From a bacterium (lineage in GTDB: Bacteria; Zixibacteria; MSB-5A5; GN15; FEB-12): DNA of 33,246 nucleotides. Below are positions 1,998 to 33,246 of the stretch, piece by piece (the first letter of the stretch is position 1; each line of letters opens with the position of its first letter). Below the pieces are notes generated by a model. The model was not told the origin of the DNA and did not search any database. It saw nothing but the letters and a program-made list of their open reading frames with translations. A program made the translations under genes and the position numbers. The stretch lies in NCBI GenBank assembly GCA_043811375.1, contig JBDRNJ010000032.1, positions 1 to 33,246 of the forward strand. Reading direction: 5' to 3'.

Positions 1998-2642
1998 GTG
2001 TTCAATTATGCGACGCAAAGGCATTTGACTCACATCTTGCTCATCGACGCGGAGCCGGTGGAGATAATGCAGGAACTGGTGCAGAACGCCAGGCAACTCT
2101 ACAGTCATTTCTGCGAGATCGCGGGTAAGGATAGATACCACCACTACTCTTTGAGAATCGTCTTTCCGGAGACACGTACCGACTTAGCATCACCGGCTAA
2201 TGAACTGGTGTCTCGTCTGAAGCAGGAGGGGATTGACTGCGGTCTTTATGACGTCAAAGATGCAGACATGTTCTTGGTGAAAGGAAAGGCAGGTCTCTTG
2301 GTCTGCAGCCTTTGGCTTATGGCAGGTGCCGTCCTGCTGAACGATGTGCCATTGTCAACCGCGGATGCGGGCTCTCTTCTTACACTGGCCAATCGGGAGG
2401 AGGGTATTCATCTCTTGGATCGAGGTCTTCATGCGGCGTTGATTGGAAATCAAACTACAATAGACAACAAGCTTCTCAGGCTGCCAGCAGAGCATGATCT
2501 CAGTGATGTGTTGAGGACACTTGGCGCAGGAGAAAGACGCGGTCATATACGATTAGGCAGGACTTCGGACGGCTGCTTGCCCTTAGTGTTTGCCCTTGGA
2601 ATGCTGCTATTAACAGCGACCCTCAAATTATGGCTGGCGTAA
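1998..2642 (+). CDS. Hypothetical protein with C-terminal hydrophobic anchor
   Basis: 214 aa, strong RBS (ggaaggagg) before GTG, hydrophobic tail LPLVFALGMLLLTATLKLWLA. Confidence 0.7.
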   Translation: MFNYATQRHLTHILLIDAEPVEIMQELVQNARQLYSHFCEIAGKDRYHHYSLRIVFPETRTDLASPANELVSRLKQEGIDCGLYDVKDADMFLVKGKAGLLVCSLWLMAGAVLLNDVPLSTADAGSLLTLANREEGIHLLDRGLHAALIGNQTTIDNKLLRLPAEHDLSDVLRTLGAGERRGHIRLGRTSDGCLPLVFALGMLLLTATLKLWLA

Positions 2643-2773
2643 CATCAGACGAAGTTATGAGACAAGTACCACTGCGTGGAGCGGAATGTTCTGGTCCCAC
2701 TCTGACGTGGATCGGGACCCCGTTGTCGTAGACCAGCTAGAGTAGAGATCCTACGCCTTCGGGTCCGATAAGG

Positions 2774-2831
2774 TTGTAACGCTCAGGTTTAGCGGCGGCG
2801 CAGCGACGTCTGCTGCAACTTGTTGCTAGAC
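2774..2831 (-). other. Integron attC site (58 bp), last of the array
   Basis: Minus strand GTCTAGC-AACAAGTTGCAGCAGACG...CGCCGCTAAACCTGAGC-GTTACAA. Imperfect palindrome similar to attC 3750-3811, starting 16 nt after the ankyrin stop. R'' has AGC in place of AAC. Confidence 0.75.
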
Positions 2832-2846
2832 GGGTTTTCGCATGCG

Positions 2847-3281
2847 TCACCTTCGCCACTTCTTGCCATGTTTAGCCCCCTTCTCACGCAGCAAGTGAAC
2901 GACAGGAGGAAGCGTAGCAGCGATGCCTTCACGCTTGTAGTTTGCGAAGGCAGCGAAATCCAAAGGGGCGTCGCCGTTGTTGTCTAGGGCGTTGATGTCC
3001 GCACCATTATCAATGAGCAACGCCGCGACGTCCTCACTCGAGCTCGATGCAGCAATGTGTAGTGGAGTCATCTCGTGACTTTCACGACCATCGACTTCCG
3101 CGCCATTGGCCAGCAAATACTCTGCTACCTCCCGATGGTCAAAGCGTGCCGCCCAGTGCAGTGGCAGGAATCCCTCGTTATCTTTGACATTCACGAGTTC
3201 GGACTCGGCCGCAAGAAGGGACTTGACACGGTCCAAGTCTCCAAAGCGAGCAGCTCGACATAAACGGAAATCTGTTCTCAT
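2847..3281 (-). CDS. Ankyrin-repeat protein (gene cassette)
   Basis: GFLPLHWAA, MTPLHIAA and GDAPLDFAA repeats. Start moved to ATG 3281, after RBS ggag. Confidence 0.92.
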   Translation of the reverse strand: MRTDFRLCRAARFGDLDRVKSLLAAESELVNVKDNEGFLPLHWAARFDHREVAEYLLANGAEVDGRESHEMTPLHIAASSSSEDVAALLIDNGADINALDNNGDAPLDFAAFANYKREGIAATLPPVVHLLREKGAKHGKKWRR

Positions 3282-3297
3282 AGCTGCTTCTCCCTGC

Positions 3298-3726
3298 CTA
3301 GCCATCCCGCAGGGCGGTACGAGCGAAGTCCTCATGCTCGCTCATGCCCAGAGCTCGGAAGGTATTGGCCGCCTGCTGAAAATACTGCTTGGCCTCATTC
3401 TTGTCGGCGCGCTTGTGCAAATGGCCGAGTGCCATCAGCATGGTTGCTTCCTGGAGTCGGTGGCTACCTTGCCGGAAAAGTGCGAGGGCTTCGTCGTAAG
3501 CTTGCCGTGCCTCGCTGTCACGACCAGCCAGCGCATCCAGGAATCCCCGGCCTTTGAGGGCGTTACCCTTGCCCAGGAAGTCTGCATTGGTTTCGGCCAA
3601 GGCAAGAGCCTCATTGAACAGTCGTCTCGCCTTCGCCTCGTTGCCATGCACCGATAGCTCCCTCGCCTGGTGGAGGAGGGAACTTACTTTGACAGTTTCC
3701 GCTTTCACGTCGGAATCGAAGTCCAT
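3298..3726 (-). CDS. Small TPR protein (gene cassette)
   Basis: 142 aa from MDFDSD, with RBS aaggag just after the attC GTTAGGC. TPR-like helices GNALKGRG..EARQAYDEALALF and EATMLMALGHL. Confidence 0.85.
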   Translation of the reverse strand: MDFDSDVKAETVKVSSLLHQARELSVHGNEAKARRLFNEALALAETNADFLGKGNALKGRGFLDALAGRDSEARQAYDEALALFRQGSHRLQEATMLMALGHLHKRADKNEAKQYFQQAANTFRALGMSEHEDFARTALRDG

Positions 3727-5569: not shown

Positions 5570-6232
5570 CTACACCGAGCCGAATTGCTTCTCAACACGC
5601 TCGGCAACATCTGGGAACTGCTGTGACATTTCCCTACGCTGCTCCTTTGAGAGCGGTGCGAAGGGGTTTTTACCCTCGCGCAGAAGCTGGAGCATGAAAC
5701 TCCGCATTATCGCCGTTTCTGCGATGCCTATGACACGTGCCACTTCATCGACATCTGGGCCATTATCAGAAAACCGAGCACCATGCTTCAAGAGGAATCT
5801 AACCATCTTGCGGCGCTCCTCTTGCTCGGACGGATCCATCGCCAGTCCCCAGGACGCGTATAGCCGGTCAGTAGGCAGCGCAGCGAAGACGTGTTTAAGC
5901 GCATTCCTGCCTTCGTTGTCCTCTACATTCACATCAGCTCCATTCTCGACCAAAAGGCAGAGCATTTCATAGTTGGCCGTTGCGGTAGCAATGTGAATAG
6001 GAGTCTTGCCATCTGAGGACTTAGCATTCACATCAGCGCCGTGCTTGATGAGCAGCAGTAGAATAGCCGGCGTGCTGTTAACTGCGTAATGGACGGGACG
6101 ACTTCCGCGCGAATCAAGGGGCGCATTTACGTCAAGTCCCGCTGACAGATGCTTCTTCACTTGCCGCAGATTTCCTTTGAGAATGGCGGCTTCAATGTGA
6201 TCGTGACTCAATCTTCTGCTGAAGATTGCCAT
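5570..6232 (-). CDS. Ankyrin-repeat protein
   Basis: GSRPVHYAV, GADVNAKSSDGKTPIHIA and GADVNVEDNEGRNAL. Start at MAIFSRR after RBS aaggagg. Confidence 0.92.
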   Translation of the reverse strand: MAIFSRRLSHDHIEAAILKGNLRQVKKHLSAGLDVNAPLDSRGSRPVHYAVNSTPAILLLLIKHGADVNAKSSDGKTPIHIATATANYEMLCLLVENGADVNVEDNEGRNALKHVFAALPTDRLYASWGLAMDPSEQEERRKMVRFLLKHGARFSDNGPDVDEVARVIGIAETAIMRSFMLQLLREGKNPFAPLSKEQRREMSQQFPDVAERVEKQFGSV

Positions 6233-6505
6233 GTGTACCTCCTTCACGGCGCAACTGTGATGGTATCGACCCGCATCTGACAACGATCAGGAGATCGCTG
6301 CCTGTCGGCAGAAGTGCTCTTCGGCGACTTATCAGACGTACGCTAAAAAACAGCTTCCGCAGATACTCTCGTTGCGCTCCTGGATTCATCTCGAAGTCCT
6401 GCACGGATCAGTTCGAAATCACTGGCTTCCAAGTCCACATCACGTTCCTACAGCGAGAGAGAGATCTCCCGCATTCACGAGAATCAGAGTCCATTTTGAC
6501 TGTCC

Positions 6506-6809: not shown

Positions 6810-7325
6810 TCACGACGAGTTCCCCTTGAGTCTGAAGATCGGCAGTGACCTGAGGAATTCTTTGACGCTGCCCTTGGGTGGCGTCAACTCAAACTCTATC
6901 TCTGTATTCTTGTTCTTGTACTTGATTCTAAATCGCGTTGATAGCAACACGACGATGAGAAGCACTTGTGGAATGTCGATATTAGCGAGGATATCAGCAA
7001 GTGCGAATTCACCCCCCGCTTCCATTCCCAGGCCATCCAAGAGGCGCGTTACGGCTTCAGGTCGGCTCTCAGCATATCGCTCAACCAGTGATCGGAACGT
7101 CTGAACAAGAGCGAGATCGTCGGGTCTCTCGCGCAATGTATGGATTCCCAGGTCCTTAAGCAGCTGGTCGAGAGAAGGTGCAAATGTCTCCCTCTTTAGT
7201 TCACTCAAAGTGGTCTCTGCGATGATACCCCCCGCGCTCCTTCTCTCCTCGTTAAGAAGCCAGATGGTAAGGCGTGCGACATCCGCATCAGACAACCACG
7301 CTATCCTCTGCTGCAAGTCTGTCAT
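6810..7325 (-). CDS. CHAT-associated hypothetical protein (171 aa)
   Basis: ATG overlaps the CHAT gene stop (ATGA, 7322-7325). Helical N-terminus, then a hydrophobic segment, a basic beta-like segment and an amphipathic tail. Confidence 0.85.
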   Translation of the reverse strand: MTDLQQRIAWLSDADVARLTIWLLNEERRSAGGIIAETTLSELKRETFAPSLDQLLKDLGIHTLRERPDDLALVQTFRSLVERYAESRPEAVTRLLDGLGMEAGGEFALADILANIDIPQVLLIVVLLSTRFRIKYKNKNTEIEFELTPPKGSVKEFLRSLPIFRLKGNSS

Positions 7326-10300
7326 AACCAGTCTCCCGTTAAAAAGTAAGGACTCCAATGCAATAATGAGCTAAATCTATCATTGCGGATCATCTCTGTT
7401 TGCGCCTCTTTAAGTGCTCCACTCTTTCCAGCCTCCGGGTTAGACAGCCAGTTGCTGTAGAATACCTTCATGAAGAGACATTTGGATTCAGCATTTACCG
7501 GCCATAGCGAGTGGAGAATGGAAGGCGCTCGCGAATGGAGCAGAGACCTCGTCATGCCAATGAGTTCATCGCCGGGCTTAATCTCCGCTCGACCTATTTC
7601 GCATGAGCTCAGTGTGATTAAACGACAGCGAAGTGACAGATTCATCCACTCCCGAGCGGAAAGAAATGCGCCAGAATCGATGGTTTCAAGGAAACGATCC
7701 TTGTGTGGTCTCTGCGGGAAGTCTCTGCCGTCAGTTAGCAATACGCCTGTGGAGGCCATCGTGTCCTCAGAAACCACCATGTAACCGTGTGCAGCCAAAT
7801 GAATGCAATCACATTGCCGCATTTCATCGAGCACGCGTACTCTGGAGCAGTCCGTACCGGTCAATGCGTTCACGTTGAGGAGCTTTCCTATTGCCTCTGC
7901 CTCTTGTTGTACTGACTTCTGATAGCGGCCGCGGTCGTCGCGAGCCCATGTCCCGCACACAAGTGGGGAGGTAATCCTGGTATCCTCTTGTCGGGCGGGG
8001 TTGTTACGACGACAGAACGGTAGTGTCGAGGCGGACGGAAGGTATGTCACCTCGAATCGTTCAGCACAGTGTTTGGTTGCACCATCTATTCGAATCCTCA
8101 TTGCATGAAAAGGGAAATAATGCAAGTATCCATGTGGGACAATATATAGAAGCCGCATGTCCTTGAGCTGCTCGACAACCGGATCAAGAAGGAGCTTTCC
8201 AAGCCCCAGGAAGCCTTCTACGCTCTGATCAAAGCTGTCAGTATCGAGCGGATTCGCCTGTGCGACGGCCGTATATAGATTGACCCACTCCCGCTTCCAG
8301 TACTTGCTGCCATGAGCAAGCTCATGAATATGGACCGTTGGATCATCGCCAGCGATAGCAAGAACATAGGTATGATCGTCGTCGGTGAAATACTCAATTA
8401 GCGCTGTGTCAGGATCTAGATGTGCGCGGATATCCTTCAGCTGACTAGGTGTTCCGCGTCGTGTAGATACATATTCGGGGTAGCTATCCTCCATTTGATC
8501 GTATATCTCTTCGAGTTCATTCCATACGTTATGCTCGACTTCGTCAACGTTCTGCTCGACGAGCGAATCTGAGCTCGCAGGCCTCTTCAACTCGCTGATT
8601 TCGGACAGACAGGTTGTCTCCCTCTCAAACAGTTGAGCGTGGTCGCCGCTGATGGGAGTTGGGCGGTGCAGATCGCCGGCGCCGAGCATATCAAGAAGAG
8701 TGCGGGACTTGCATGATTCAATGAATTCGAGGAGCTTTTCCGGTGCATCACCGTTGGGGAGAGGAATTCCTCGGCGGTACATCTCCATTAGAAGCGCAAT
8801 CCCGTCACTATATATGGACTCATGTGATCCTAGAAAACTGATTTTCAATTCCGGATATAGTGCTGTTTGTCTGCTCCTATCGATGTTCTTGATTCCCTCT
8901 TCATAACAGAGAAACGCCTGCTGTTGTCGAAGGACTTGATTCTGAGTATCAGCTCGTATGAGCGCCTGATACGTTTGTCCGAGCTGATGTCGGAACCCGG
9001 CATCACAGGAGGTGCGAGAATTCACCTCCCTAAGGAGCATTTCAGAAGTGCTCAGATTGCCCATTGCTTTTTCGGGTGAATCGGCAAGCTCGGCAATGTA
9101 GCGGAACACGCTTCCTTTGACCGCGAGTATCTGAAACAGGTGGTGTTGATTTCCGATAGATCGGGCAATTGCCGTAGCTTCGTCAAGAAGCCTCAGACAG
9201 CCCCTCAGTAGTCCCACATTACGAATGCGGCGGCCTTGCACCGACTGAATGTGAGCAAGTCCCGTGATCGCTCTCATTTCCATTGACCGCTCCATGTGGG
9301 CTCGCCGATAGAAGTCGACAATCCTATTCTGGTGTTCAATGGCTCTGCTAATCCATTCCTCGAACTCGGTGTCATCACCGGCTCGCTCCGCAATGCTAAA
9401 ACAACAAGTGGCGAGATTCCCATTGTCTTTAGCCACATTTTGGAGAGATCGATATTGAATGTCAATGCCGAGTGCCTGCTCGTGATATGCAATAGCCTTC
9501 CGAAAATCACCGAAATGAGCATAGCAAATGCCGATATTGCCTAAATTGTGAGCTACGCTCACAACATCGCCCAGTTCACTCCCTAAAAGGGCAGCTTTGC
9601 GGCTCACGTCGATAGCTTTGCCGTAGAGGCCGCTATTCAGCAATATAAGTCCTCGATTGGTAAGTATGTGACATCTGCCTCGCGGAAGACCTGCCTTGAT
9701 GTAGAGGTCGAGTGCACGCTGATTGAACCTCAGTGCGTCCGTGTATTCACTACGGTCCATTGCGATGAAAGAAAGCAGATTGTCTAGTCCGGCATGCTCG
9801 ATTTCTGCACCTCGATCAGGAAGTGTTCGCCGTGCCGCCTCGCTCTTCCTGACAGCGTCATCGAATCGGCCGCGCCTTTGAAATGTCAAAGCTTCTGTAA
9901 CCAGTCTTTCATACTCTTCCCATGCACTTCTCAAGGCCGGATCACTGTGCATAGATATACTGATGTTGTCTTTCGATTGTTTTTCCTTGTCTAGCTCGGC
10001 CAGCCACTCCTTCCTGTACTCTGAAAACGTCTGTCCCATGTCAATACGGTGTACCGCAGCCTCCGCGAGCGGATTATGCGGTGAGTGCGCCAGTGCTTCC
10101 TCCAGGTTTCGGCGTGCTGCTCCGATGTCACTTCTAGCCCACGCTGCGACGCCGATGAATGCTTCGGCTTCGGAACGATATCGGCCAGCGAGCAACTCCA
10201 GCTCCCGGGGCGTCTCGGCAAGTCTTGCTGAATTACTTACAGCCTCAGCATCACTTGAGAGTTGAACCACTTCCTTTCCAAGAGCCACCATGCGGTCGAA

Positions 10301-13965: not shown

Positions 13966-14517
13966 CTAGGTTTGTTGCAGCAGCGTATTCAGCTTGACCG
14001 AAACAGCCCACGAGGGGAGGGGCTCGCTCGGTGTACATTCTCCCGGAAGTACTCGACAGCAAACAGACTCAAAGTGGCTAAGGTATATGCGATTATCAGG
14101 CTGTTGGAGGAGGATTCGCCGAATCGGCGGATTAACTTCGAGTTGGGTGTTGACTGCGGCACGGCGGCCCGCTACCAGGAGCTGAGACAGGCACTTATCA
14201 CCAATCGCTAGATTCCCGATGATCTGAATGGCACACTTGTGAAAAGTTCTAGCAGACATCTGCTTCTCCGCCCATAGCTCTTGGTTCTGTCGCGTGAGCT
14301 GGGTAACCTGTCTCTGAAGCCCTGCTTCGTTAGATGAAGTACGACTCCCGGTGATGCACTTCCAGAATGCGAAGGCTCCAGCGAGCATCACAATGACCAA
14401 CGGAATCGCTACCTTAGGCTGAATTGATGTGGCTTCCCCGACAGTGCGTGCTTCTGGAATTGCCTGTTCGGCTGGGCGCATGTCGCCAGACTTCTTAGGT
14501 GATAACTTGCCAGTCAT
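13966..14517 (-). CDS. Hypothetical single-TM protein
   Basis: TM helix VAIPLVIVMLAGAFAFW followed by a short coiled coil; co-oriented with the cluster. C-terminal half uncertain. Confidence 0.55.
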   Translation of the reverse strand: MTGKLSPKKSGDMRPAEQAIPEARTVGEATSIQPKVAIPLVIVMLAGAFAFWKCITGSRTSSNEAGLQRQVTQLTRQNQELWAEKQMSARTFHKCAIQIIGNLAIGDKCLSQLLVAGRRAAVNTQLEVNPPIRRILLQQPDNRIYLSHFESVCCRVLPGECTPSEPLPSWAVSVKLNTLLQQT

Positions 14518-14995: not shown

Positions 14996-16627
14996 TCATC
15001 CTGCAAACCGCCGCCATTTCTCCAGAAATACTTGAGCTAATCGCTCGCATTCACACAACCTTGCTTCCAAATCCGTGATGTTAACCAACTGCTCAATACC
15101 CGGAAGACTACCCACTAAGCGAGTTTGATGCGCCGTTTTCCACGCGTTCGGTAGATCTTTACGGGCATTCCGGAGCGCGCTGAGACATCGTTCAAGGTAA
15201 CTCGCGACCTCTGGCGGCAAGCTGCCCTCGCGATATCTGACGACCCTCAGGGCATGAAGTGCCTCTCCAGCCGTGTTCAGGGCTGCAACGAAGCCATCAA
15301 TGGCGGCTATATCAGAGGCAACGGCCCGCCATGCCTCTGGAGAGCCATGCTTAGCCTCAAGTGCTCCTTTCGTCGCTGAGAGGATACCCGCCGCGGTTGC
15401 CCTTCTCATATTCAATGCCTCCTGGACATCTTCCACGCATCTCACAAGGGTCCTGAGGGCTCCGAGTACCTCACCGACTCGTCCAAACGCATTCTCCGTT
15501 TCTAGGCGCAAAGCTCCCGAACGAAACTCATTCTGCAACTCTGTTTTGCCTGGGCCAACGCCTGTGCAACGCTGCCATCTCTGCCCCAGTATTACGCCCC
15601 AAAACAGGGAAATGGTACCGAGCAACACGAAGACTTCAAAGTAGGGAATAGGAAATCCGCCAATGCCGCCGACGAATGTTGTTTGCGCTTCTACTGTTAG
15701 TCCGAAAAGGAGAAAGAACATGAGCAGAGCGACATACTGACTGCGCTCTCCATGAACCCACTTGTCCGGGAGGTTACTGATACCACGCCTTGCTGACCAA
15801 TAACCGATCGAACCGATCATCATGATCGCCACATAAAGGAAAATCGATAACCCTACATATGCCCCTTCCCGTGCGGCTGCGAGTACAGGATTCGTAGCGA
15901 AGTAGATTGCGACAGATGACATCCATGCCACTGTGCACGCTCTCTCATCAAACACCTTTGAAATACGTCGGTGTCCCAGAAACAAGAATAGGCTTACACC
16001 CAGCAGCAGAACCACTATGAGAGCGGGTATACTTGACAGCCAGTTCACATAGATCCGGGCCAAATGCGGCTCCATTCCGCCGGGGCTCAGAAAACCCCAA
16101 GGGAAGTAGTAGATTGAACCGCTGGATACAAAGAGCATGACCAACACATATGACATGCCCAAAGCGACCAAACCATCGAAGATCCGCGCGCTGAAGCCCA
16201 TAAGGCGATATCGAATGATTCTTGCTATTGGATATGCCACAGCCGCAGGAACAAGTAACAGGATTGCACTCTTGAGATCCTGGACTAGTTTCCAGTCTAG
16301 ATGACGGCCGAGACTGCTGCTGTTATCGATGAGTAAGGCGGCAATCCCAATCCAGAGAAGGAGGTCGATTCTTGCCTTGCCGCGCCAGAAGAAGCGACCC
16401 AGTGCATAGCCGCTGGCGATTGCAGCGAATCCAGCCGCCAAATAGATAACGTGAAAATCCGAGGTAAGAAGTTGGAGCATTCCGTAGAGCAAGAGAACGA
16501 TGATCACAAACCCGATTCTCTTGGACTGTGCTGCTGCCAATCTACCTATTAGACCACACAAAAAGAATAGCGTGAAGGACACTGCGGCAAAGGCAGCTAT
16601 ACCGAGAATCCCAAGCATAAGTTTCAC
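14996..16627 (-). CDS. Polytopic membrane protein with C-terminal helical soluble domain
   Basis: About ten or more hydrophobic segments in the first ~350 aa, then an Ala/Leu/Glu/Arg-rich helical region. Confidence 0.85.
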   Translation of the reverse strand: MKLMLGILGIAAFAAVSFTLFFLCGLIGRLAAAQSKRIGFVIIVLLLYGMLQLLTSDFHVIYLAAGFAAIASGYALGRFFWRGKARIDLLLWIGIAALLIDNSSSLGRHLDWKLVQDLKSAILLLVPAAVAYPIARIIRYRLMGFSARIFDGLVALGMSYVLVMLFVSSGSIYYFPWGFLSPGGMEPHLARIYVNWLSSIPALIVVLLLGVSLFLFLGHRRISKVFDERACTVAWMSSVAIYFATNPVLAAAREGAYVGLSIFLYVAIMMIGSIGYWSARRGISNLPDKWVHGERSQYVALLMFFLLFGLTVEAQTTFVGGIGGFPIPYFEVFVLLGTISLFWGVILGQRWQRCTGVGPGKTELQNEFRSGALRLETENAFGRVGEVLGALRTLVRCVEDVQEALNMRRATAAGILSATKGALEAKHGSPEAWRAVASDIAAIDGFVAALNTAGEALHALRVVRYREGSLPPEVASYLERCLSALRNARKDLPNAWKTAHQTRLVGSLPGIEQLVNITDLEARLCECERLAQVFLEKWRRFAG

Positions 16628-22439: not shown

Positions 22440-25163
22440 CTAAGGCTTGACACTGACTGCACCGCGCCCAGCGGTCGGGTTGGCAATAATGTGGTAGTCA
22501 GTGCCGTTCAGCAGAAGCCAGTGCACGCCGTCGCCAGTGCGGCAGGCAATGGCGTCTTTTAGCGGTGACCATGAAAAGTCGTACACAGAGGAATACTTGA
22601 TCAGCCATGCAGAACCCCAGTCGCCGACTGTACCGTGGTGTAATCCAGTTGATGACACATAGGCATATACCGACTTGTCGTTTGACAATCTCAATAACGA
22701 GACATTGTCAGACACCACTTGGACTGGCGACACTAATGTGGTGTCCGTGTAATCAATCAGATCAAGTAAGTAAATGCCCGATCCGGTCTCGAATATCAGC
22801 TGTCGATCATTGATCCAGGTCAAATTGATGTCTTCATCAAATCCTGTCCCGAATGTGTTAGAGACCCTGTGTGTACCAGTCCCGTCTTTACTCATCAGGC
22901 AAAGATAGGCACGAGTACCATACTCCTGATGGATAAAGGCGATGACTGAGTCGCCTGGTGCATAAGTCGGGCAGTGGTCCCAACAATAGCACCAGGTGGA
23001 CATTATCCTCTTATACTCATCTGTCTGAGTGTCATACCAGTAAACGCCGCTCCTGTAATGGCCATAAACCAGATATCGGCTGTCATGCGACCAGTCAAAA
23101 TCCATGGAACGTGAGCCGGCCAAGCCGGCTTCCAGATCACCCTCACGGCTAATGATGGTCACGGGACTAGTCAGTCCAGTAAATACTAGGTATTCACCGT
23201 CAGGTGACCAGAGCAGATCGCCGGGATAGTCCACATAGGAATCAATCCAGCTGTCATAGCCAATTGACAAAACCTGCGGATAAATCCCGTCGAGACTCAC
23301 CATATAGACAGTGTCAGCAACAGTATAGGTGATCTGGCGGGTTGGTGCGAAATCATGGTGCAGGCTGGCTGTATGAGTGTAGCCGGTTACGACTTGAATC
23401 GTAGTATCCGCGGGGAAGTGATTAGGAGAGAGTGTACGCACATAGTATTGGCCTGGGCTGATATCCTCCAATGTGTGGGGAGTAACATATCCTGTCGGAC
23501 TGCCGTTCAGACAGATCTCAGCCCCCGAAGGCACTGATTCTATTATCAGTGCTGTAGGCGCTTGCTCCAGTTGGACGTTGATAGCAGTCTCCTGATCAGC
23601 GGTCACCAAGACCGTTTCCGTATGGTCGAGATAAGCTGGCAGAGTCAGTTTGACCACATAAGTGCCTGGGTTTAGATCAGCCAGAGTATCAGGAGTTGTC
23701 AAACCAGTGTTGATATAGCCAAGATAGATGGCAGCGCCGGCAGGCGAAGACAGAACAACGATCTTTCCATAGATGGACGTTAGGTCTACATTTACTACGG
23801 TTGTCACATTCACATTGACCGTTACAGTCGAATCCCAGGTTGTGTAGCCGACTCTTGAAAGTGAGAGCCGATGGCTACCGGTCCAGACGTCATCCAACGT
23901 GTATGGTGTTGTCAGGCCAGTGCCGACTCCATCAAGAGTGATATGTGCAGCCTGAGGATCGGAATTGATGTTCAAGCTGCCGACTTCGTGATCCAGTTCA
24001 ATGGCGAGGAAGACATTATCAAACGGGATGATTTGTACATCAGCCTCGTAGTCCTTGTAGTCTGCCAAGGTGAGCTTGAGCCGATGCATGACGGAAGTTA
24101 GGTCCTCGAAAGTGCATGGAGTTATTTGGCTGGTATTGGTACCGTCAAGCCAGACAGCAGCTCCACTTGGCGCGGACTGTACGTGAAGCGAGCCGTGCTG
24201 GACATTGAGTTGCGGACTGACGTTTGTTGTCTGGTCTGTAGCAACCAAAGCGCTGTCAGACCACTCATCATAACCGTATTTGACCAGTTCCAAATGATAC
24301 CAGCCAGTCTCCAGTCCTGTGAAGGTATGCGGTGTTTCAGAATTGGAATTTGAACCGTCAAGCCAGATAGCAGCTCCGTGTGGGTCAGAACTTATGTACA
24401 GATTGCCAACTTCACGCTGTAGAACGGCATGAACTTCAATGGTGTCGAAAGCCTGGACGGCTACCGGTTCGACGTAGTCATAATAATCCGGCAATGTCAA
24501 TCTCAGTTCATGACTGTTAGCCAACAGACTGTCCACGGTGGCTGGCGTAACTATGCCCAAATCAACTCCATCAAGCAATATGGCTGCTCCCGCAGGCTCT
24601 GAAGTAACTGCAAGTCCGCCAACCAGCTTTTCCATGACCGCATTTACCACGGTAGTGCTATCACTGCCAATGCGGACTGTGTCCATCCACTCTGAATAGT
24701 TGGTCAGCGTGAGCTTTAGTTCGTAATCTCCGATTCTCCGGTTAACGAATTGCCACGGCGTGACATAAGAACTGCCGGAATACCCATCGAGGTAGATTTT
24801 AGCACCTGCTGGCTCAGAGTAGACTACGAGATTGCCGATAGTTTTAACCAGCATGGCCACCACTTCTTTGGTTTGGTTTTCAGCAACTGTCACCGTATCA
24901 ACCCAGTCCGCATATAGGTGTTTGGTTACCTTAACCACGCGGTCGCCCACCAGCACCTCGTTTATCTGGAGAGTACTGTCTAAGCCAGTGCGGCCCTTGC
25001 TTCTTCCATCAATGTAAACCGTGGCATATTCCACGCTTTTCACCAGGATTGAGCCGACTGGGGGGGCTGGGCTCACTGGGTCATCATCACATGAGACGTA
25101 GATTGAGCAGGTAACAGCGAGAAGGACCATTACCATCAACTGCTTGCGCCGTTTCACAATCAC
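22440..25163 (-). CDS. Lipoprotein with ~8 PEGA domains and a TolB-like beta-propeller
   Basis: Repeated G.L.V.S.P.GA.I.LDG units; C-terminal WSPDG/WSHD/WSP motifs; signal peptide ending YVSC. Confidence 0.92.
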   Translation of the reverse strand: MIVKRRKQLMVMVLLAVTCSIYVSCDDDPVSPAPPVGSILVKSVEYATVYIDGRSKGRTGLDSTLQINEVLVGDRVVKVTKHLYADWVDTVTVAENQTKEVVAMLVKTIGNLVVYSEPAGAKIYLDGYSGSSYVTPWQFVNRRIGDYELKLTLTNYSEWMDTVRIGSDSTTVVNAVMEKLVGGLAVTSEPAGAAILLDGVDLGIVTPATVDSLLANSHELRLTLPDYYDYVEPVAVQAFDTIEVHAVLQREVGNLYISSDPHGAAIWLDGSNSNSETPHTFTGLETGWYHLELVKYGYDEWSDSALVATDQTTNVSPQLNVQHGSLHVQSAPSGAAVWLDGTNTSQITPCTFEDLTSVMHRLKLTLADYKDYEADVQIIPFDNVFLAIELDHEVGSLNINSDPQAAHITLDGVGTGLTTPYTLDDVWTGSHRLSLSRVGYTTWDSTVTVNVNVTTVVNVDLTSIYGKIVVLSSPAGAAIYLGYINTGLTTPDTLADLNPGTYVVKLTLPAYLDHTETVLVTADQETAINVQLEQAPTALIIESVPSGAEICLNGSPTGYVTPHTLEDISPGQYYVRTLSPNHFPADTTIQVVTGYTHTASLHHDFAPTRQITYTVADTVYMVSLDGIYPQVLSIGYDSWIDSYVDYPGDLLWSPDGEYLVFTGLTSPVTIISREGDLEAGLAGSRSMDFDWSHDSRYLVYGHYRSGVYWYDTQTDEYKRIMSTWCYCWDHCPTYAPGDSVIAFIHQEYGTRAYLCLMSKDGTGTHRVSNTFGTGFDEDINLTWINDRQLIFETGSGIYLLDLIDYTDTTLVSPVQVVSDNVSLLRLSNDKSVYAYVSSTGLHHGTVGDWGSAWLIKYSSVYDFSWSPLKDAIACRTGDGVHWLLLNGTDYHIIANPTAGRGAVSVKP

Positions 25164-25186: not shown

Positions 25187-26186
25187 TGTGATATGACGTA
25201 CCCTGTAGGACAGTTCTCCTGTTATTATAACATACTTCTCAGGGCTTCGTAAGGAGTTTTTCCGTTGAATGCTCCATGGGGTCGGCCAAAATTGTAGAAT
25301 CGTTCCCATTCCTCGAGTTTCTTGTTCAGATCCACGTCGTCAGTGTAGGTGAGGAGCTGATAGAACTCCTCTTTGTCGGAACGGTGAGATCTCTCGACCT
25401 TGCCGTTGAGCTGCGGTGAACGAGGTTTGATGTAAACATGACGGATGCCCCTGTCCTCGACGTGCCAATGGAATAACGCTTGGAACTCGTGGCCCCGATC
25501 AGTACGGACGGTATGAAGGCGAAAGGGGAACTTCTCGATCACGTAGTCAATGAAGTCTATGGCGTTCTTCTGAGTATGGCGTGAATAGATCTTCAGGGCT
25601 CGAATCCTGGTAGCATCATCGATAGCAGTATACTGGAAACGCCGTATCTTCTTGCCTTCGTTGTTCTTGAGAGTAAGGAAGGTTACGTCGACTTGGATGT
25701 GGTGGCCGGGAACCTGTTTTGCATAACGCTTGGTGTGGATAGCTCGACGACCAACGTTTCTGGGTAGACGTCTCAAATCATGGCGGATAAGGGTCCGGTA
25801 GACACTCGAACTGGAGGTCTTGACAGCATGGTAACGCTCCAGATACCAAGTGATTCGCTCGGGACCGAAGTGGTAAACCTGCCTGAGATGAAGGATCTTT
25901 TCGACTACTTCGTCAGATAACTGTCGTGGATGACTCTTGGCAATTGGTTTCTTTCGGACCAAACCCGCTTCACCATGCTTGGCATAGGCCTCCTTCCATC
26001 GGTAGAATGTTGACCTGGGCACATCCCACTCTCGACATACTTTGGCGGTGTTGCCCAACGCCTCGGCTAACTCCAAAATCAGCTTCTTCAACTTGACGGT
26101 ACGCACCGGATACTTCGCCATATTCACCTCCATATTGTGGCTTACAAAATAACACAATATGTCCCGCAAGGTCTGCTATATCTACA
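25187..26186 (-). mobile_element. IS481-family element (~1.0 kb)
   Basis: TGT...ACA termini with imperfect ~26-bp inverted repeats around a single transposase gene. No target duplication evident. Confidence 0.85.
25225..26121 (-). CDS. IS481-family DDE transposase
   Basis: N-terminal HTH; QVDV, TDRGHEF and NGKVER motifs; start MAKYP after RBS ggagg. Confidence 0.95.
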   Translation of the reverse strand: MAKYPVRTVKLKKLILELAEALGNTAKVCREWDVPRSTFYRWKEAYAKHGEAGLVRKKPIAKSHPRQLSDEVVEKILHLRQVYHFGPERITWYLERYHAVKTSSSSVYRTLIRHDLRRLPRNVGRRAIHTKRYAKQVPGHHIQVDVTFLTLKNNEGKKIRRFQYTAIDDATRIRALKIYSRHTQKNAIDFIDYVIEKFPFRLHTVRTDRGHEFQALFHWHVEDRGIRHVYIKPRSPQLNGKVERSHRSDKEEFYQLLTYTDDVDLNKKLEEWERFYNFGRPHGAFNGKTPYEALRSML

Positions 26187-26312: not shown

Positions 26313-29300
26313 GTGGATATTCAATCAGGTTTGTTCAAACTGGGAGCGTTAGTTCTGAAGCTGCTTTCCCAAGAATTGGGGAAGAAAGCACTATCATCTG
26401 CTCTCAAACGTCCGTTGGAACAAAGGGCCTTTGAAAAGGCTATCGACGAAACCGTTGCTACTTTGCACAAGTACGGATATTCCTTTGACAGCCGAGGTGG
26501 CTTCTATGAAGAGTTCCTCACTAGTGAAGAGGTCATTCGAGAACTGTGGTCGGGACTGTTTGATCCATCAGGTGTCTTCTGGGTCAACCGCACAAGAATG
26601 ATTGAAATCCTTCGAACGAAATGGGAATCCGATATTCCGCTTAATCACTCATTAGAAGACTTCCTATTTGCGTTTATTATTGAGTTACAATATAGAATAT
26701 CTCAATCTCCCAGGTTAGAGTACCTCGCAAGACTTCGAGTGCAAAGGATGCAAGCAGGTGTGATCAGTTTGCAATCCATGCGAGTATTACTTGATCGATG
26801 CAGAGAAGAGATTCGCTCAAGAGCCTCAGTGGCCCTGAACAACTTGCTCATGGAAATGCCATTTATAGAACCTCGTTTCGCTCTGTTTCGTGACCACTTT
26901 ACTCAGACAACCACTACTCGACTCAGCGAACATACTGGGCAGTTTGGTGATTTGTGCCTGGACTCGTTGCAGGAACTCGTTAAGTCCAAGAGAAACTTCC
27001 TCTTCATTGCGGATTCAGGATTCGGGAAGTCTATTGTACTGAGACAACTCGAATTGTTGATTTCTTCTGAGTCAGAGGCCGGTGCCCGAGTTCCCATCTT
27101 CAGCCATATCTCCGACGTTTTGCGGTACGACACACCAAACGCTTTGATACGTTTTCTTACTGCTCGCTTTTCAACACAAGCTGTCGACACATGGATCATT
27201 GAAACGGCACTTGAGAAGCTTTGGCATGAAGGCAGACTCGTGTTTCTCCTTGACAGTCTGGATCAGATTGACAACTACGCGCCAGCAATCGATCGGATCA
27301 CCTCCGCAGACGTTTTCAGCACAAATCAAATCATGATCGGAACACGGCCCTCCGGATACAGGCGAATTTCCGATGCGATATCTGACTTCGTTCCCGTCAG
27401 TGTTCTTAGGTTTTCTGAGAGCCAAATGAGAGAGTACTTGGGAGATTCTTGGAAAATAGAAAACATACGGAAAATGTTAACTGAGAATCCTGAACTGTCG
27501 GGAGTACCTCTGTTCTTGCAGATGTTAGCAGAGTTGGCCAAGTACAAGCCACATAGACTCGCAACAATGAATAGCCGCAGCCAGCTATACGGAGCATACC
27601 TACGCCGGGTATTCGAGACTGAAAAGGCACTAGACAAACGTAGACTACCTAGTCATGATGAACTCAACTACGAAGTATACATAGTCCCCTCTATGAAGCA
27701 ATTGAGTTACAAGAGCCTTCTTGACGGACATGTAGGAAGGTTTCCTGAGGAATCCATACTTACGTACGAGATCGAGCCCTCTATGCTCAACCATATTCTT
27801 CGGTGGAATCTTCTCAAGAGAGTAGTCGTCCAAAATGACTCATACTTGGAATACCGACATCATTCCTTTCAAGAATACTATGCGGCACTTGAATTAGCAG
27901 AGGTCTTGTTCGATGCCGATGGGAGAGTATGTACTGATAAGCTCTGTGAACTGGTTGAGCACACTCGATGGGATGAGCCCCTCAGGTTCTTAATAGAAAT
28001 ACTAGATCACGACAGAGCAGCTAGATTACTAAGCAGCATATCGTCTTACGACATGCTGCTTGCTTGCGAGTTGATAGACTGTGTGCCAGAGTTCCTCTGC
28101 TCTCGAGAAGAGGTGCGGGCAGTATACTTGGATTGGCTGGCCAAATGCTCTAATCCTATCAACATCCTTAGTGAAGGTGATGCGCGATATACTTGGATGC
28201 TCCTCTTCTTTGCTATCGCGACAAAAAACAACCAAGATGCGATAAGCCGATTTCTTTCTTCGCATGAAAGGGACTTAGAAAGCGCGATGGTTGATGCTGC
28301 ACTAGACCTCCTCTACCAGATCCACTTCAGCCACTTCGGCGGCGAGCATGCCTTACTCTATACGCTGTTTTCAGATCACGACTTAGAGTTGTCGCCGGAA
28401 CTCAATCGAATTGGAGAAGCGCTAGCTTGGATGCTTGGGATAATCGCACTAGGTCAGCTAGGTGGATCAAAGGCAGCAAAGGCCTTAATGAAGCTGTGGC
28501 GACTGGCCAAAGGAGAAAGTCGCAGAACCATCTCATGGGCACTCTCAAGATTGAGAGATCCTGACAGCCTGGAAGTCCTGCTCGATATGATGTTTGATGC
28601 GGATGGAGAGGTACGGTTCTATGCAGTGAATGCATTCAGGGAACTGGGTATTAACAACAAAGTGGAAAGGATCGTAGAAACTGTGAGAAGAGACAAGAAG
28701 AGGCTCACAGATGAGGTTGCAATTATCCTTGCCGAATCCAACAATGCTTCGGCCCAAGCACTTGTCAACGAACTGAAAAACGACGAGAACTGTAGGTCCA
28801 GAGCACTTGTGCATTTTGCGTTAGATTGGGCGTCGTCTGTCAAAGACCGATCTGCTTCCCTTAACGACGATTCGACCGGCACACGACGAGAGCCGGACGA
28901 GGGAGTGGAATCGGCCCGTATACGGGATGAGGAGCTGCAGGACCTGAGAAGAATGTTGGGAGACTCAAACTGGGCGCTAAGGTGGTTTGCTGCATCAACA
29001 CTTGGGGCACGGCGCGATAAACGCACCGAGGATGATCTGAAAGCGATGCTGGAGGATCCAGAACCGGCAGTACGCGGAGAAGCGGCACTTTCCTTAGGTA
29101 GGTTTACGTCTGTATCATCGATGGAAGAGATCGCAAAGCTGCTCGACGACGCATCCGATTTCGTAAGATTTCGTGCGGCCTGTGCGCTCGCCCGACTAGG
29201 TGACAGCAGATCATTGAGTTATCTGTTACAGGTTATCTGCCAGGATGATGTCGATTCAGCCCTCAGCGCATTCCAGTCTCTCAAAGAACTTTTCGTCGTG

Positions 29301-29447
29301 CGTCCTCAGCTCTTAAAGAGTTCCTACGAGACCTCTTGGAAAGAATGGTACGCGTTCTATAGGCAGCACCCACACTTGTTTGTGCAAATGAACTTGGCCA
29401 TTGGGAGACGTTTCTTGCACGTGAAGTTAGTGTATTGGACAATTTAG
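26313..29447 (+). CDS. NACHT NTPase with C-terminal HEAT repeats (bacterial NLR-like)
   Basis: Walker A ADSGFGKS, Walker B VFLLDSLDQ, GVPLFL, YRHHSFQEYYAA, and HEAT repeats (DPEPAVRGEAALSLG). Confidence 0.92.
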   Translation: MDIQSGLFKLGALVLKLLSQELGKKALSSALKRPLEQRAFEKAIDETVATLHKYGYSFDSRGGFYEEFLTSEEVIRELWSGLFDPSGVFWVNRTRMIEILRTKWESDIPLNHSLEDFLFAFIIELQYRISQSPRLEYLARLRVQRMQAGVISLQSMRVLLDRCREEIRSRASVALNNLLMEMPFIEPRFALFRDHFTQTTTTRLSEHTGQFGDLCLDSLQELVKSKRNFLFIADSGFGKSIVLRQLELLISSESEAGARVPIFSHISDVLRYDTPNALIRFLTARFSTQAVDTWIIETALEKLWHEGRLVFLLDSLDQIDNYAPAIDRITSADVFSTNQIMIGTRPSGYRRISDAISDFVPVSVLRFSESQMREYLGDSWKIENIRKMLTENPELSGVPLFLQMLAELAKYKPHRLATMNSRSQLYGAYLRRVFETEKALDKRRLPSHDELNYEVYIVPSMKQLSYKSLLDGHVGRFPEESILTYEIEPSMLNHILRWNLLKRVVVQNDSYLEYRHHSFQEYYAALELAEVLFDADGRVCTDKLCELVEHTRWDEPLRFLIEILDHDRAARLLSSISSYDMLLACELIDCVPEFLCSREEVRAVYLDWLAKCSNPINILSEGDARYTWMLLFFAIATKNNQDAISRFLSSHERDLESAMVDAALDLLYQIHFSHFGGEHALLYTLFSDHDLELSPELNRIGEALAWMLGIIALGQLGGSKAAKALMKLWRLAKGESRRTISWALSRLRDPDSLEVLLDMMFDADGEVRFYAVNAFRELGINNKVERIVETVRRDKKRLTDEVAIILAESNNASAQALVNELKNDENCRSRALVHFALDWASSVKDRSASLNDDSTGTRREPDEGVESARIRDEELQDLRRMLGDSNWALRWFAASTLGARRDKRTEDDLKAMLEDPEPAVRGEAALSLGRFTSVSSMEEIAKLLDDASDFVRFRAACALARLGDSRSLSYLLQVICQDDVDSALSAFQSLKELFVVRPQLLKSSYETSWKEWYAFYRQHPHLFVQMNLAIGRRFLHVKLVYWTI

Positions 29448-31958: not shown

Positions 31959-32312
31959 ATGCGTGTCAAACAGGGCCAGAGTCCGGAATCGGTAGTGAAG
32001 GAGATTCGTCGTCAGACGCGTCGGAAGTTTACGTCTGAGGAGAAGATTCGGATCGTTTTGGAGGGGCTCAAAGGGGAAGCCAGTATCGCGGAGTTGTGCC
32101 GTCGGGAAGGAATTGTCAGCAATTTGTATTACCGCTGGAGTAAGGACTTCCTGGAGGCGGGTAAGAAGCGTCTGGCGGGGGACACGGTCCGGGAAGCCAG
32201 CAGCGGTGAGGTAATCGGTCTTCGCCAGGAGAACGAACAGTTCAAGCAGTTGGTAGCGGAGCTGTCTCTGAAGAACCGCCTGCTGAAAAAAAGTCTGACT
32301 GGGCTGGAGTGA
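31959..32312 (+). CDS. IS3 transposase OrfA (HTH)
   Basis: RRKFTSEEKIRIVLEGLKGEASIAELCRREGI. Confidence 0.95.
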   Translation: MRVKQGQSPESVVKEIRRQTRRKFTSEEKIRIVLEGLKGEASIAELCRREGIVSNLYYRWSKDFLEAGKKRLAGDTVREASSGEVIGLRQENEQFKQLVAELSLKNRLLKKSLTGLE

Positions 32313-33246
32313 GGCGACAGCGTTATATGCGGCACAGTCAATCGGAGAAGCTTGAGATCATCCGGGTGGTGGAAGACTCGGCGCTCGGGGTGAAGCAGAC
32401 GCTTCGGGAGCTGGATGTTAACCGGAGCACCTTCTATGCCTGGTACCGGCGCTACCAGGAGTGTGGCGTTGAGGCTCTAACCGACTGGACCTCACACCGT
32501 CGCCAGTTCTGGAATGCCATTCCACCCTGGGTCAGAAAGAAGGTTGTTGAGACGGCCCTGGAACATCTGGACAAGTCTCCCCGGGAGTTGGCCTGGTATC
32601 TGACTGATACCCAAGGGTATTACATCTCGGAATCGAGTGTGTACCGCATCCTGAAGGTCAACGACCTGATCACCAGCCCGGCCTACACCGTTCTCTCTGC
32701 CAAGGACAAGTTTGACCAACCGACGACCCGAGTGAATCAGCTCTGGCAGACCGATTTCACCTACCTGAAGATCATCCACTGGGGCTGGTACTATCTGTCG
32801 ACGGTGCTGGATGATTACTCCCGGTACATTCTGGCCTGGCGGCCCTGCTCGGGCATGTCAGCCGAGGATGTGAAGGAAACGATTGACCTGGCCATCGCCG
32901 AGTCAGGTGTGGATCATGCCTATGTCCGTCACCGGCCGAGACTGCTCTCGGACAACGGGCCGTGCTATATCTCGGGCGAATTGAAGAAGTACCTGGCCGA
33001 CCAGGGGTTTACTCATACCCGCGGCAAGCCGTATCATCCGATGACCCAGGGGAAGATCGAGCGGTATCATCGGTCAATGAAGAACATCCTGCTGTTGGAT
33101 AATTACTACTGTCCAGATGATCTCAAGGCTCAGATTGAGGCCTTCGTGGACCACTACAATCATCGGCGGTACCACGAATCACTGTCCAACGTGACCCCGG
33201 CAGACGTTTATCATGGGCGGGCAGCGGAGATATTGGAGCAGCGGGA
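32309..33246 (+). CDS. IS3 transposase OrfB (DDE), partial; -1 frameshift fusion with OrfA
   Basis: Hand translation gives WQTDFTY, LLSDNG, GKIER and RYHESL; open to the window end. Confidence 0.93.
   Translation, partial: MRRQRYMRHSQSEKLEIIRVVEDSALGVKQTLRELDVNRSTFYAWYRRYQECGVEALTDWTSHRRQFWNAIPPWVRKKVVETALEHLDKSPRELAWYLTDTQGYYISESSVYRILKVNDLITSPAYTVLSAKDKFDQPTTRVNQLWQTDFTYLKIIHWGWYYLSTVLDDYSRYILAWRPCSGMSAEDVKETIDLAIAESGVDHAYVRHRPRLLSDNGPCYISGELKKYLADQGFTHTRGKPYHPMTQGKIERYHRSMKNILLLDNYYCPDDLKAQIEAFVDHYNHRRYHESLSNVTPADVYHGRAAEILEQR

Follow-up and report, generated by a model that had tools for sequence, protein, structure and literature searches.

A small protein encoded beside a TPR-CHAT protease is a plausible cleavage-activated membrane effector

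Pairing a protease with an effector is emerging as a dominant logic in the immunity of bacteria, and such pairs also emerge as the evolutionary roots of caspase-gasdermin pyroptosis; the known effectors are still few, namely gasdermin, EACC1, Pepco, MBL, alpha/beta-hydrolase and Csx30. The described systems that bear most directly on the locus analyzed here are the following: (i) the cut made in bacterial gasdermin by the Runella CHAT protease falls after the P1 residue Leu247 in an exposed loop of ~12 residues, and the Leu-Gly dipeptide at this site is essential (10.1101/2021.06.07.447441), (ii) the site at which Csx29 cuts Csx30 is a small flexible loop (residues 427-429), and deletion of Met427 blocks this cleavage (PMC10028731), and (iii) EACC1 is cut once by its caspase to give a 7.1-kDa C-terminal fragment that is toxic and permeabilizes liposomes and an N-terminal fragment that is inhibitory (Evans et al. 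2025, 10.1101/2025.11.14.688446). EACC1 had been delineated earlier as a conserved transmembrane helix with a glycine patch and flanks of alpha and beta structure, encoded 5' of the caspase gene (Kaur et al. 2020, PMC7159879).

The stretch of DNA analyzed here, referred to as the window, comprises 33,246 nucleotides. On its minus strand, three genes are tightly packed in the operon order TPR protein (P0003), TPR-CHAT protease (P0002) and small protein (P0001). A first-pass annotation of the window had described the small protein as joined to the protease gene by an ATGA motif and had stated that CHAT proteases cleave the products of neighboring genes. The Runella gasdermin (10.1101/2021.06.07.447441) and the Csx29-Csx30 pair (PMC10028731) are published precedents for the latter. 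The P0001 gene (6810..7325, minus strand, stop codon at 6810-6812; supported by homologues and alignments) encodes 171 aa, and the ATGA coupling was found as described: The P0001 ATG at 7325-7323 overlaps the TGA at 7324-7322 of the upstream 1457-aa gene, and the two genes have four bases in common (7322..7325, minus strand). A Shine-Dalgarno-like GGGAG, read from the sequence, is located at 7333..7337 on the minus strand, 7 nt 5' of the P0001 ATG and within the end of the CHAT gene. P0003 (11702..14062, minus strand) is a TPR-only protein of 786 aa whose own start codon is uncertain; because its stop codon lies only 6 nt 5' of the P0002 ATG, it likely belongs to the same operon as P0002. A scan for promoters and terminators at the locus gave counts no higher than in shuffled sequences, and base composition revealed no distinct island boundary around the three genes. 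The 4-base overlap is evidence for co-transcription or translational coupling only and not for a protease-substrate relation.

P0002 (7322..11695, minus strand, 1457 aa) matches a large number of TPR families and has a CHAT domain at its C-terminus (E 1.6e-45 in a Pfam scan), which comprises residues 1165-1455 (7331..8203, minus strand) and includes His1303 (7787-7789) and Cys1365 (7601-7603). In an alignment of P0002 with 12 CHAT proteins of the same phylum, the columns of these two residues are invariant in 13 of 13 CHAT domains. P0002 keeps the catalytic His/Cys dyad and, judged by this alignment, the protease looks active. Among solved structures, the CHAT domain is closest to those of Csx29/TPR-CHAT (E 1.5e-8). 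TM-like segments are lacking in both P0002 and P0003 (Kyte-Doolittle 19-residue maxima 1.15 and 1.03, respectively). CHAT proteins are present in 95 of 284 other genomes of the phylum, and the best of them have at most ~30% identity to the CHAT domain of P0002. The host genome has four CHAT genes; the other three have different neighbors, and beside none of them is there a P0001-like partner.

Other arrangements of CHAT genes were encountered during this work. Four genomes of the same class have, 101-143 nt after a TPR-CHAT gene, a gene for a protein of 148-162 aa (L018 2866-3342, L019 2910-3356, L027 2706-3194 and L030 2694-3182); these proteins have a signal-peptide-like N-terminus and motifs that are visibly common to all four, and they look like another small partner, distinct from P0001, that recurs with TPR-CHAT proteases. 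Beyond another CHAT gene of the host genome (L032, on contig C65 of G000), a 284-aa ORF on the opposite strand (2613-3467, minus strand) starts with a Cys-rich motif, which we take to resemble zinc-finger anti-sigma factors, and the CHAT gene and this ORF may form an anti-sigma type CHAT cassette. A cassette of the anti-sigma type was also considered for the P0001 locus and rejected; P0002 and P0003 have no TM-like segment and no sigma factor is among the ORFs scanned.

P0001 is present in a single copy in its own genome. A HMMER search of 1.84 billion representative proteins identified 12 relatives of 113-180 aa (E 8e-30 to 6e-9, 29-43% identity), and because of these matches and because the N-termini of the relatives align with the P0001 ATG at 7325, we regard P0001 as more than a chance ORF. 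A profile search of 90% clusters added three sequences and cluster look-ups added three near-duplicates, giving a family alignment (A5) of 19 sequences, i.e. P0001 and 18 others; three pairs in A5 are at least 98% identical and, therefore, all conservation counts given below rest on 16 distinct sequences. The 18 other members are all metagenomic; two of them, a pair, come from contigs of ~10 kb and the others from contigs of 0.7-2.6 kb. Searches elsewhere were negative within the sets covered: There was no credible match to P0001 in 60 relatives (best E 0.109), no match to the family in 284 other genomes of the phylum, no family locus in scans of genome contigs and viral contigs, and no family match in plasmids and phages by tblastn. 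Fused or longer forms of P0001 were also searched for, and no candidate scored, which by the nature of this search is weak evidence. The ESM Atlas places unnamed actinobacterial proteins of 158-178 aa nearest to P0001 (score 0.94, TM 0.66/0.70) and has no named cluster near it, and described partners that match the family are absent from the literature searched by family names and general terms, with supplementary tables outside the scope of that search. We conclude that the P0001 family is very rare and previously undescribed, and that P0001 is its founding member in the window.

Outside the window, the gene context of one other family member is readable. This locus (L010), the only one found by scans of metagenome contigs, is on a contig of 1391 bp that carries the P0001 homologue (83-613) and, after a gap of 3 nt, a gene for a TPR_12 protein, which ends with the contig after 258 aa, with no CHAT domain visible. 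The best local match of this TPR protein in P0002 is to residues 680-770, the TPR_12 region before the CHAT domain (34% over 93 aa, E 4e-7); given that the match lies in TPR repeats, it is at most weak evidence of orthology. Gene order in L010 is reversed relative to the window and the adjacency to a TPR gene recurs, whereas linkage of the family to a CHAT gene was seen only in the window. Among CHAT loci of the phylum, 12 of the 19 fetched were assessed, the seven left out holding the gene on the other strand, and a P0001-like coupled ORF was present in none of the 12. These data bear on the alternative that the function of P0001 is unrelated to the protease and that its gene is merely co-transcribed in a mobile island. 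The context comes from two loci only, in which gene order differs, and the family is too rare for neighborhood statistics. Against this alternative, the P0001 gene is within 4 nt of a same-strand TPR-repeat gene at both readable loci, and P0001 contains a loop motif that fits known CHAT specificity, as detailed below; we consider an unrelated function quite improbable.

The architecture of P0001 was deduced from an AlphaFold2 model built from the 19-sequence alignment (pLDDT 80, pTM 0.79); a single-sequence fold reached a pLDDT of only 37 and was useless. In the model, residues 3-98 are helical and lead into a loop (99-108); two further helices (109-114 and 118-129), two strands (132-137 and 142-147) and the C-terminal helices (151-165) follow. 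In terms of features, all on the minus strand, an acidic all-helical N-terminal domain (residues 1-98, 7032..7325; pI 4.95 for residues 1-99; conserved L11, S12, D13, R18, W22, D25, R28 and R78) is followed by a predicted flexible loop (residues 96-108, LDGLGMEAGGEFA, 7002..7040), by a short amphipathic helix and then a hydrophobic helix (residues 109-130, 6936..7001; Kyte-Doolittle 19-residue maximum 1.99), by a modeled amphipathic beta-hairpin with the strands RFRIKYK and TEIEFEL (residues 131-148, 6882..6935), and by modeled amphipathic C-terminal helices (residues 151-165, 6831..6875). The layout in the first-pass annotation, which ran from a helical N-terminal domain through a Gly-rich linker, a hydrophobic stretch and a beta-like segment to an amphipathic tail, is the same as that in the AlphaFold2 model, and the segments quoted there, DGLGMEAGGEF and IPQVLLIVVLLST, are both in P0001.

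No other element of the family is as conserved as the Gly-rich linker singled out in that annotation, for which the model predicts flexibility. The most conserved stretch is the loop LDGLGMEAGG, with the best 9-residue window centered on residues 100-101: L99, A103 and G104 are found in 19 of 19 sequences, E102 in 18, G100 in 16 and G105 in 15, with a hydrophobic residue occupying position 101 in 17. In the AlphaFold2 model, the block of residues 101-110 has a pLDDT of 66 and is located between blocks of 86 and 85. The loop motif fits CHAT specificity because the Runella CHAT protease requires a Leu-Gly pair at P1-P1'. By analogy and from conservation and the model, Leu99-Gly100 is a candidate cleavage site; as a counterpoint, a loop that serves in binding could be just as conserved and flexible.

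The two sides of the loop differ in charge. The net charge of the N-terminal part ranges from -2 to -13 across all 19 family sequences, and a cut at Leu99 would split P0001 into 99 residues of 11.3 kDa with a pI of 4.95 and 72 residues of 8.0 kDa with a pI of 9.23. The hydrophobic segment keeps its aligned place in the family, with a Kyte-Doolittle 19-residue maximum that lies between 1.5 and 2.15 in 18 of 19 sequences and is 1.6 or higher in 16 of these; the single sequence outside the range is truncated, with 113 aa. The beta hydrophobic moment calculated for RFRIKYK, the first strand of the hairpin, is 1.46 and barely exceeds the 95th percentile of shuffled sequences (1.39); in most family members, the equivalent strand gives a weaker signal and is not the top-scoring window. 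The purely hydrophobic run of P0001 comprises ~12 residues and, because it is this short and is packed in a compact model (pTM 0.79), it may be an ordinary buried core helix.

Combining the operon structure with the conservation of the loop and the division of charge, we suggest as the most probable of the explanations considered, tentatively and with a confidence that stays somewhat short of even, that P0001 is the dedicated substrate and output of P0002 and that a cut in the loop would free a membrane-active C-terminal fragment, which would make P0001 a new effector family within the known protease-effector logic. In this model, (i) the acidic N-terminal domain would autoinhibit P0001 until it is cut, (ii) activated P0002 would cut the conserved exposed loop at or beside Leu99-Gly100, (iii) the freed basic C-terminal piece of 8 kDa would insert into or disrupt the membrane, and (iv) the system might function in abortive infection or cell death. 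The proposal of the first-pass annotation that P0001 is a candidate cleavage-activated membrane effector is plausible and partly supported.

Alternatively, P0001 may be a subunit of the TPR-CHAT protease that is not cleaved and has a regulatory or adaptor role as an inhibitor, a pseudo-substrate or a localization factor, with its N-terminal domain or loop docking on the TPRs or in the active-site cleft and the hydrophobic helix forming part of a globular core. The tight coupling of the two genes, which suggests a partner in 1:1 stoichiometry, the compact and confident monomer model with the hydrophobic helix inside the fold, and the conservation of the charged residues D13, R18, D25, R28 and R78 in the N-terminal domain are all in line with such a subunit. 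We nevertheless consider it unlikely, in that it leaves unexplained that the most conserved element is a flexible Leu-Gly loop of the kind that CHAT proteases cut and that the split into an acidic N-terminal and a basic C-terminal part is conserved.

Searches for known families and folds assigned P0001 to none of those covered. Scans of the 19 family members against Pfam, NCBIfam, PADLOC and PHROGs gave scattered single matches with E > 0.002, none of them consistent, and a sequence search of the PDB gave nothing with P0001 and a best E of 0.15 with the family profile. The P0001 model was compared with the PDB by Foldseek and had no match (best E 0.63); with 48,161 chains by VIA-align, the best Z was 3.5 and no chain reached Z >= 5, and with BFVD the best E was 0.36. 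Gasdermins were absent from the rows listed in both the Foldseek and the VIA-align comparisons, an absence that is not decisive against that family. The statement made beforehand that P0001 is not recognizable as gasdermin or Csx30 agrees with the lack of a sequence match to either of them, and the same holds for EACC1. By sequence, profile or fold, no likeness of P0001 to a pore-former was found in these searches. No Pfam, PADLOC or NCBIfam family matches the P0001 family consistently, which would extend to Pepco and CATASP if, as is presumed, Pfam includes models for these two.

Among the VIA-align rows for residues 1-103, there were weak ones to pyrin (Z 3.0), DED (Z 2.5 and 2.2) and CARD (Z 2.0), which are far below noise level and serve as a lead only. 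Rows to Death folds of the adaptor type would also suit an adaptor function of P0001, all of them below the meaningful threshold. Returning to the effector model, an extended version of it would make P0001 the founder of a new family of cell-death effectors that are gated by a protease and whose fold differs from all solved ones. In this version, an acidic helical, possibly Death-fold-like cap would hold a membrane-inserting module of helix plus hairpin until the TPR-CHAT protease cuts the Leu-Gly loop. Such a protein would constitute a third solution to caspase-triggered pore formation, independent of gasdermin and EACC1; we put this forward as a doubtful but possible extension.

Among the described systems, bacterial gasdermins (Johnson et al., 10.1101/2021.06.07.447441) resemble the P0002-P0001 pair in that a CHAT protease with repeat domains adjoins a latent membrane effector and the effector is cut in a loop after the Leu of a Leu-Gly pair, to which the invariant Leu99 and the Gly100 in 16 of 19 sequences correspond in the P0001 loop. 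In contrast to gasdermins, P0001 has no gasdermin sequence match and is only 171 aa long, the putative inhibitory part is a large N-terminal domain rather than a C-terminal peptide of ~20 residues, and the hydrophobic and basic part of P0001 is C-terminal of the conserved loop.

The likeness to Csx29/Csx30 lies in the protease, whose closest solved CHAT relatives are Csx29/TPR-CHAT, and in the arrangement, given that Csx30 is encoded nearby and is cut at a hydrophobic residue in a flexible loop (PMC10028731). P0001 differs in that it has no similarity to Csx30, and the output of Csx30 is sigma factor regulation and not a membrane effect. This pair lends itself to another alternative, namely that P0001 is cut by the CHAT protease with an output other than membrane damage, a soluble signaling or inhibitory domain being released or destroyed as in the case of Csx29 and the anti-sigma-like Csx30. 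The coupling and the loop are evidence for this scenario as they are for a membrane effector, Csx29-Csx30 demonstrates that the substrate of a TPR-CHAT protease need not be a pore-former (PMC10028731), and P0001 has no similarity to any known pore-former. On the other hand, neither CRISPR-Cas nor sigma families were found among the 24 ORFs of the window scanned against Pfam, and no other obvious target gene is among them; moreover, the position-conserved hydrophobic segment and the amphipathic hairpin are better explained by contacts with a membrane or an oligomer. An output other than membrane damage therefore appears to us distinctly unlikely.

P0001 resembles EACC1 in design in several respects. 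Both are small non-enzymatic proteins encoded beside a protease of the caspase superfamily, and in both the N-terminal part leads into a Gly-rich patch, which is followed by a hydrophobic helix and then by a beta-hairpin, with a C-terminal piece of 7.1 kDa in EACC1 and a predicted one of 8.0 kDa in P0001. They differ in that (i) the N-terminal domain is all-helical with ~100 residues in P0001 and of alpha and beta structure with ~45 residues in EACC1, (ii) the gene is 3' of the protease gene in the window whereas the EACC1 gene is 5', (iii) the protease of P0001 has a C-terminal CHAT domain behind TPRs and that of EACC1 an N-terminal caspase, and (iv) the candidate P1 residue is Leu in P0001 and Asp49 in EACC1. 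The Gly-rich patch of P0001 (G100, G104 and G105) precedes the hydrophobic helix by ~15 residues instead of being part of it. The homologue in L010 is on the EACC1-like side, 5' of the gene for the TPR protein, in which no protease domain is visible.

These comparisons concern design, and several searches for membership in the EACC1 family were negative. None of the 19 members of the P0001 family matched the EACC1 model (Pfam PF19953, cut-off 23.6 bits) at E <= 1, and the two halves of P0001 scanned singly had no match to it at E <= 10. As a control, the model identified two true members in an Embleya record, with 50.4 and 34.3 bits. Both Embleya sequences have a hydrophobic helix rich in small residues that is followed by a beta-hairpin, and one of them has a Gly-rich patch before the helix. 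An hhalign comparison of A5 with these two sequences, which form a thin profile that leaves room for distant homology, gave a probability of 0.03 and an E of 0.94. Because of this low hhalign probability and because there is no match to the Pfam EACC1 model, we interpret the relation between P0001 and EACC1 as resemblance in design and not as membership. EACC1 was not found in the host genome or in 285 genomes of the phylum, a blank that means little as the controls were also without a match.

The Embleya record provided further observations. In locus L037, the EACC1 gene (1468-1770) is separated by 8 nt from a caspase-like gene (1778-2806) with YVGHG and DCCFSG motifs, and this EACC1 gene is absent from the PLSDB gene table of the record. 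A tblastn match of P0016 in the Embleya record (E 0.6) was rejected as spurious, being antisense to an apparent HTH-like ORF of 278 aa, and the A5 profile had no match in the same record of 5.7 Mb.

If the effector model holds true, P0001 would extend the effectors described to date by a pore-former or toxin scaffold whose fold is new and whose candidate Leu-Gly cut site is clear, and P0002 and P0001 would make up a compact two-gene system that is directly testable. Should P0001 instead be a regulator, it would still be without described precedent as a dedicated partner of a TPR-CHAT protease of this free-standing cytoplasmic type.

The remainder of the contig contains several other genes of note. 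A large serine recombinase with Resolvase, Recombinase and zinc-ribbon domains is encoded at the contig start (177-1511, plus strand), and transposase genes at 25225-26169 and 31959-33244 flank a gene (26313-29447, plus strand) for a NACHT NTPase of 1044 aa with C-terminal HEAT repeats, which is of the STAND type and matches HEAT-ARM_XIII of PADLOC. The recombinase together with the IS-type transposases suggests that the contig is a mobile or variable island, and the NACHT-HEAT gene may be a second conflict-system gene on it. Located 5' of the TPR gene and on the same strand are genes for a protein of 183 aa (13966-14517, minus strand) with a single TM-like segment and for a protein of 543 aa (14996-16627, minus strand) with ~8 TM-like segments and a helical C-terminal domain, both without a family match; these two proteins could be the membrane sensor part of the P0003-P0002-P0001 unit or be unrelated to it. 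Ankyrin-repeat proteins are encoded at 2847-3335 and 5570-6283, both on the minus strand, with matches to the PADLOC candidate PDC-M72A at E 2.7e-17 and 2.9e-15; the gene at 5570-6283 is the next gene 3' of P0001, after a gap of ~530 nt. Finally, a protein of 907 aa encoded at 22440-25163 on the minus strand contains eight stretches of PEGA domain (E 5.5e-95).
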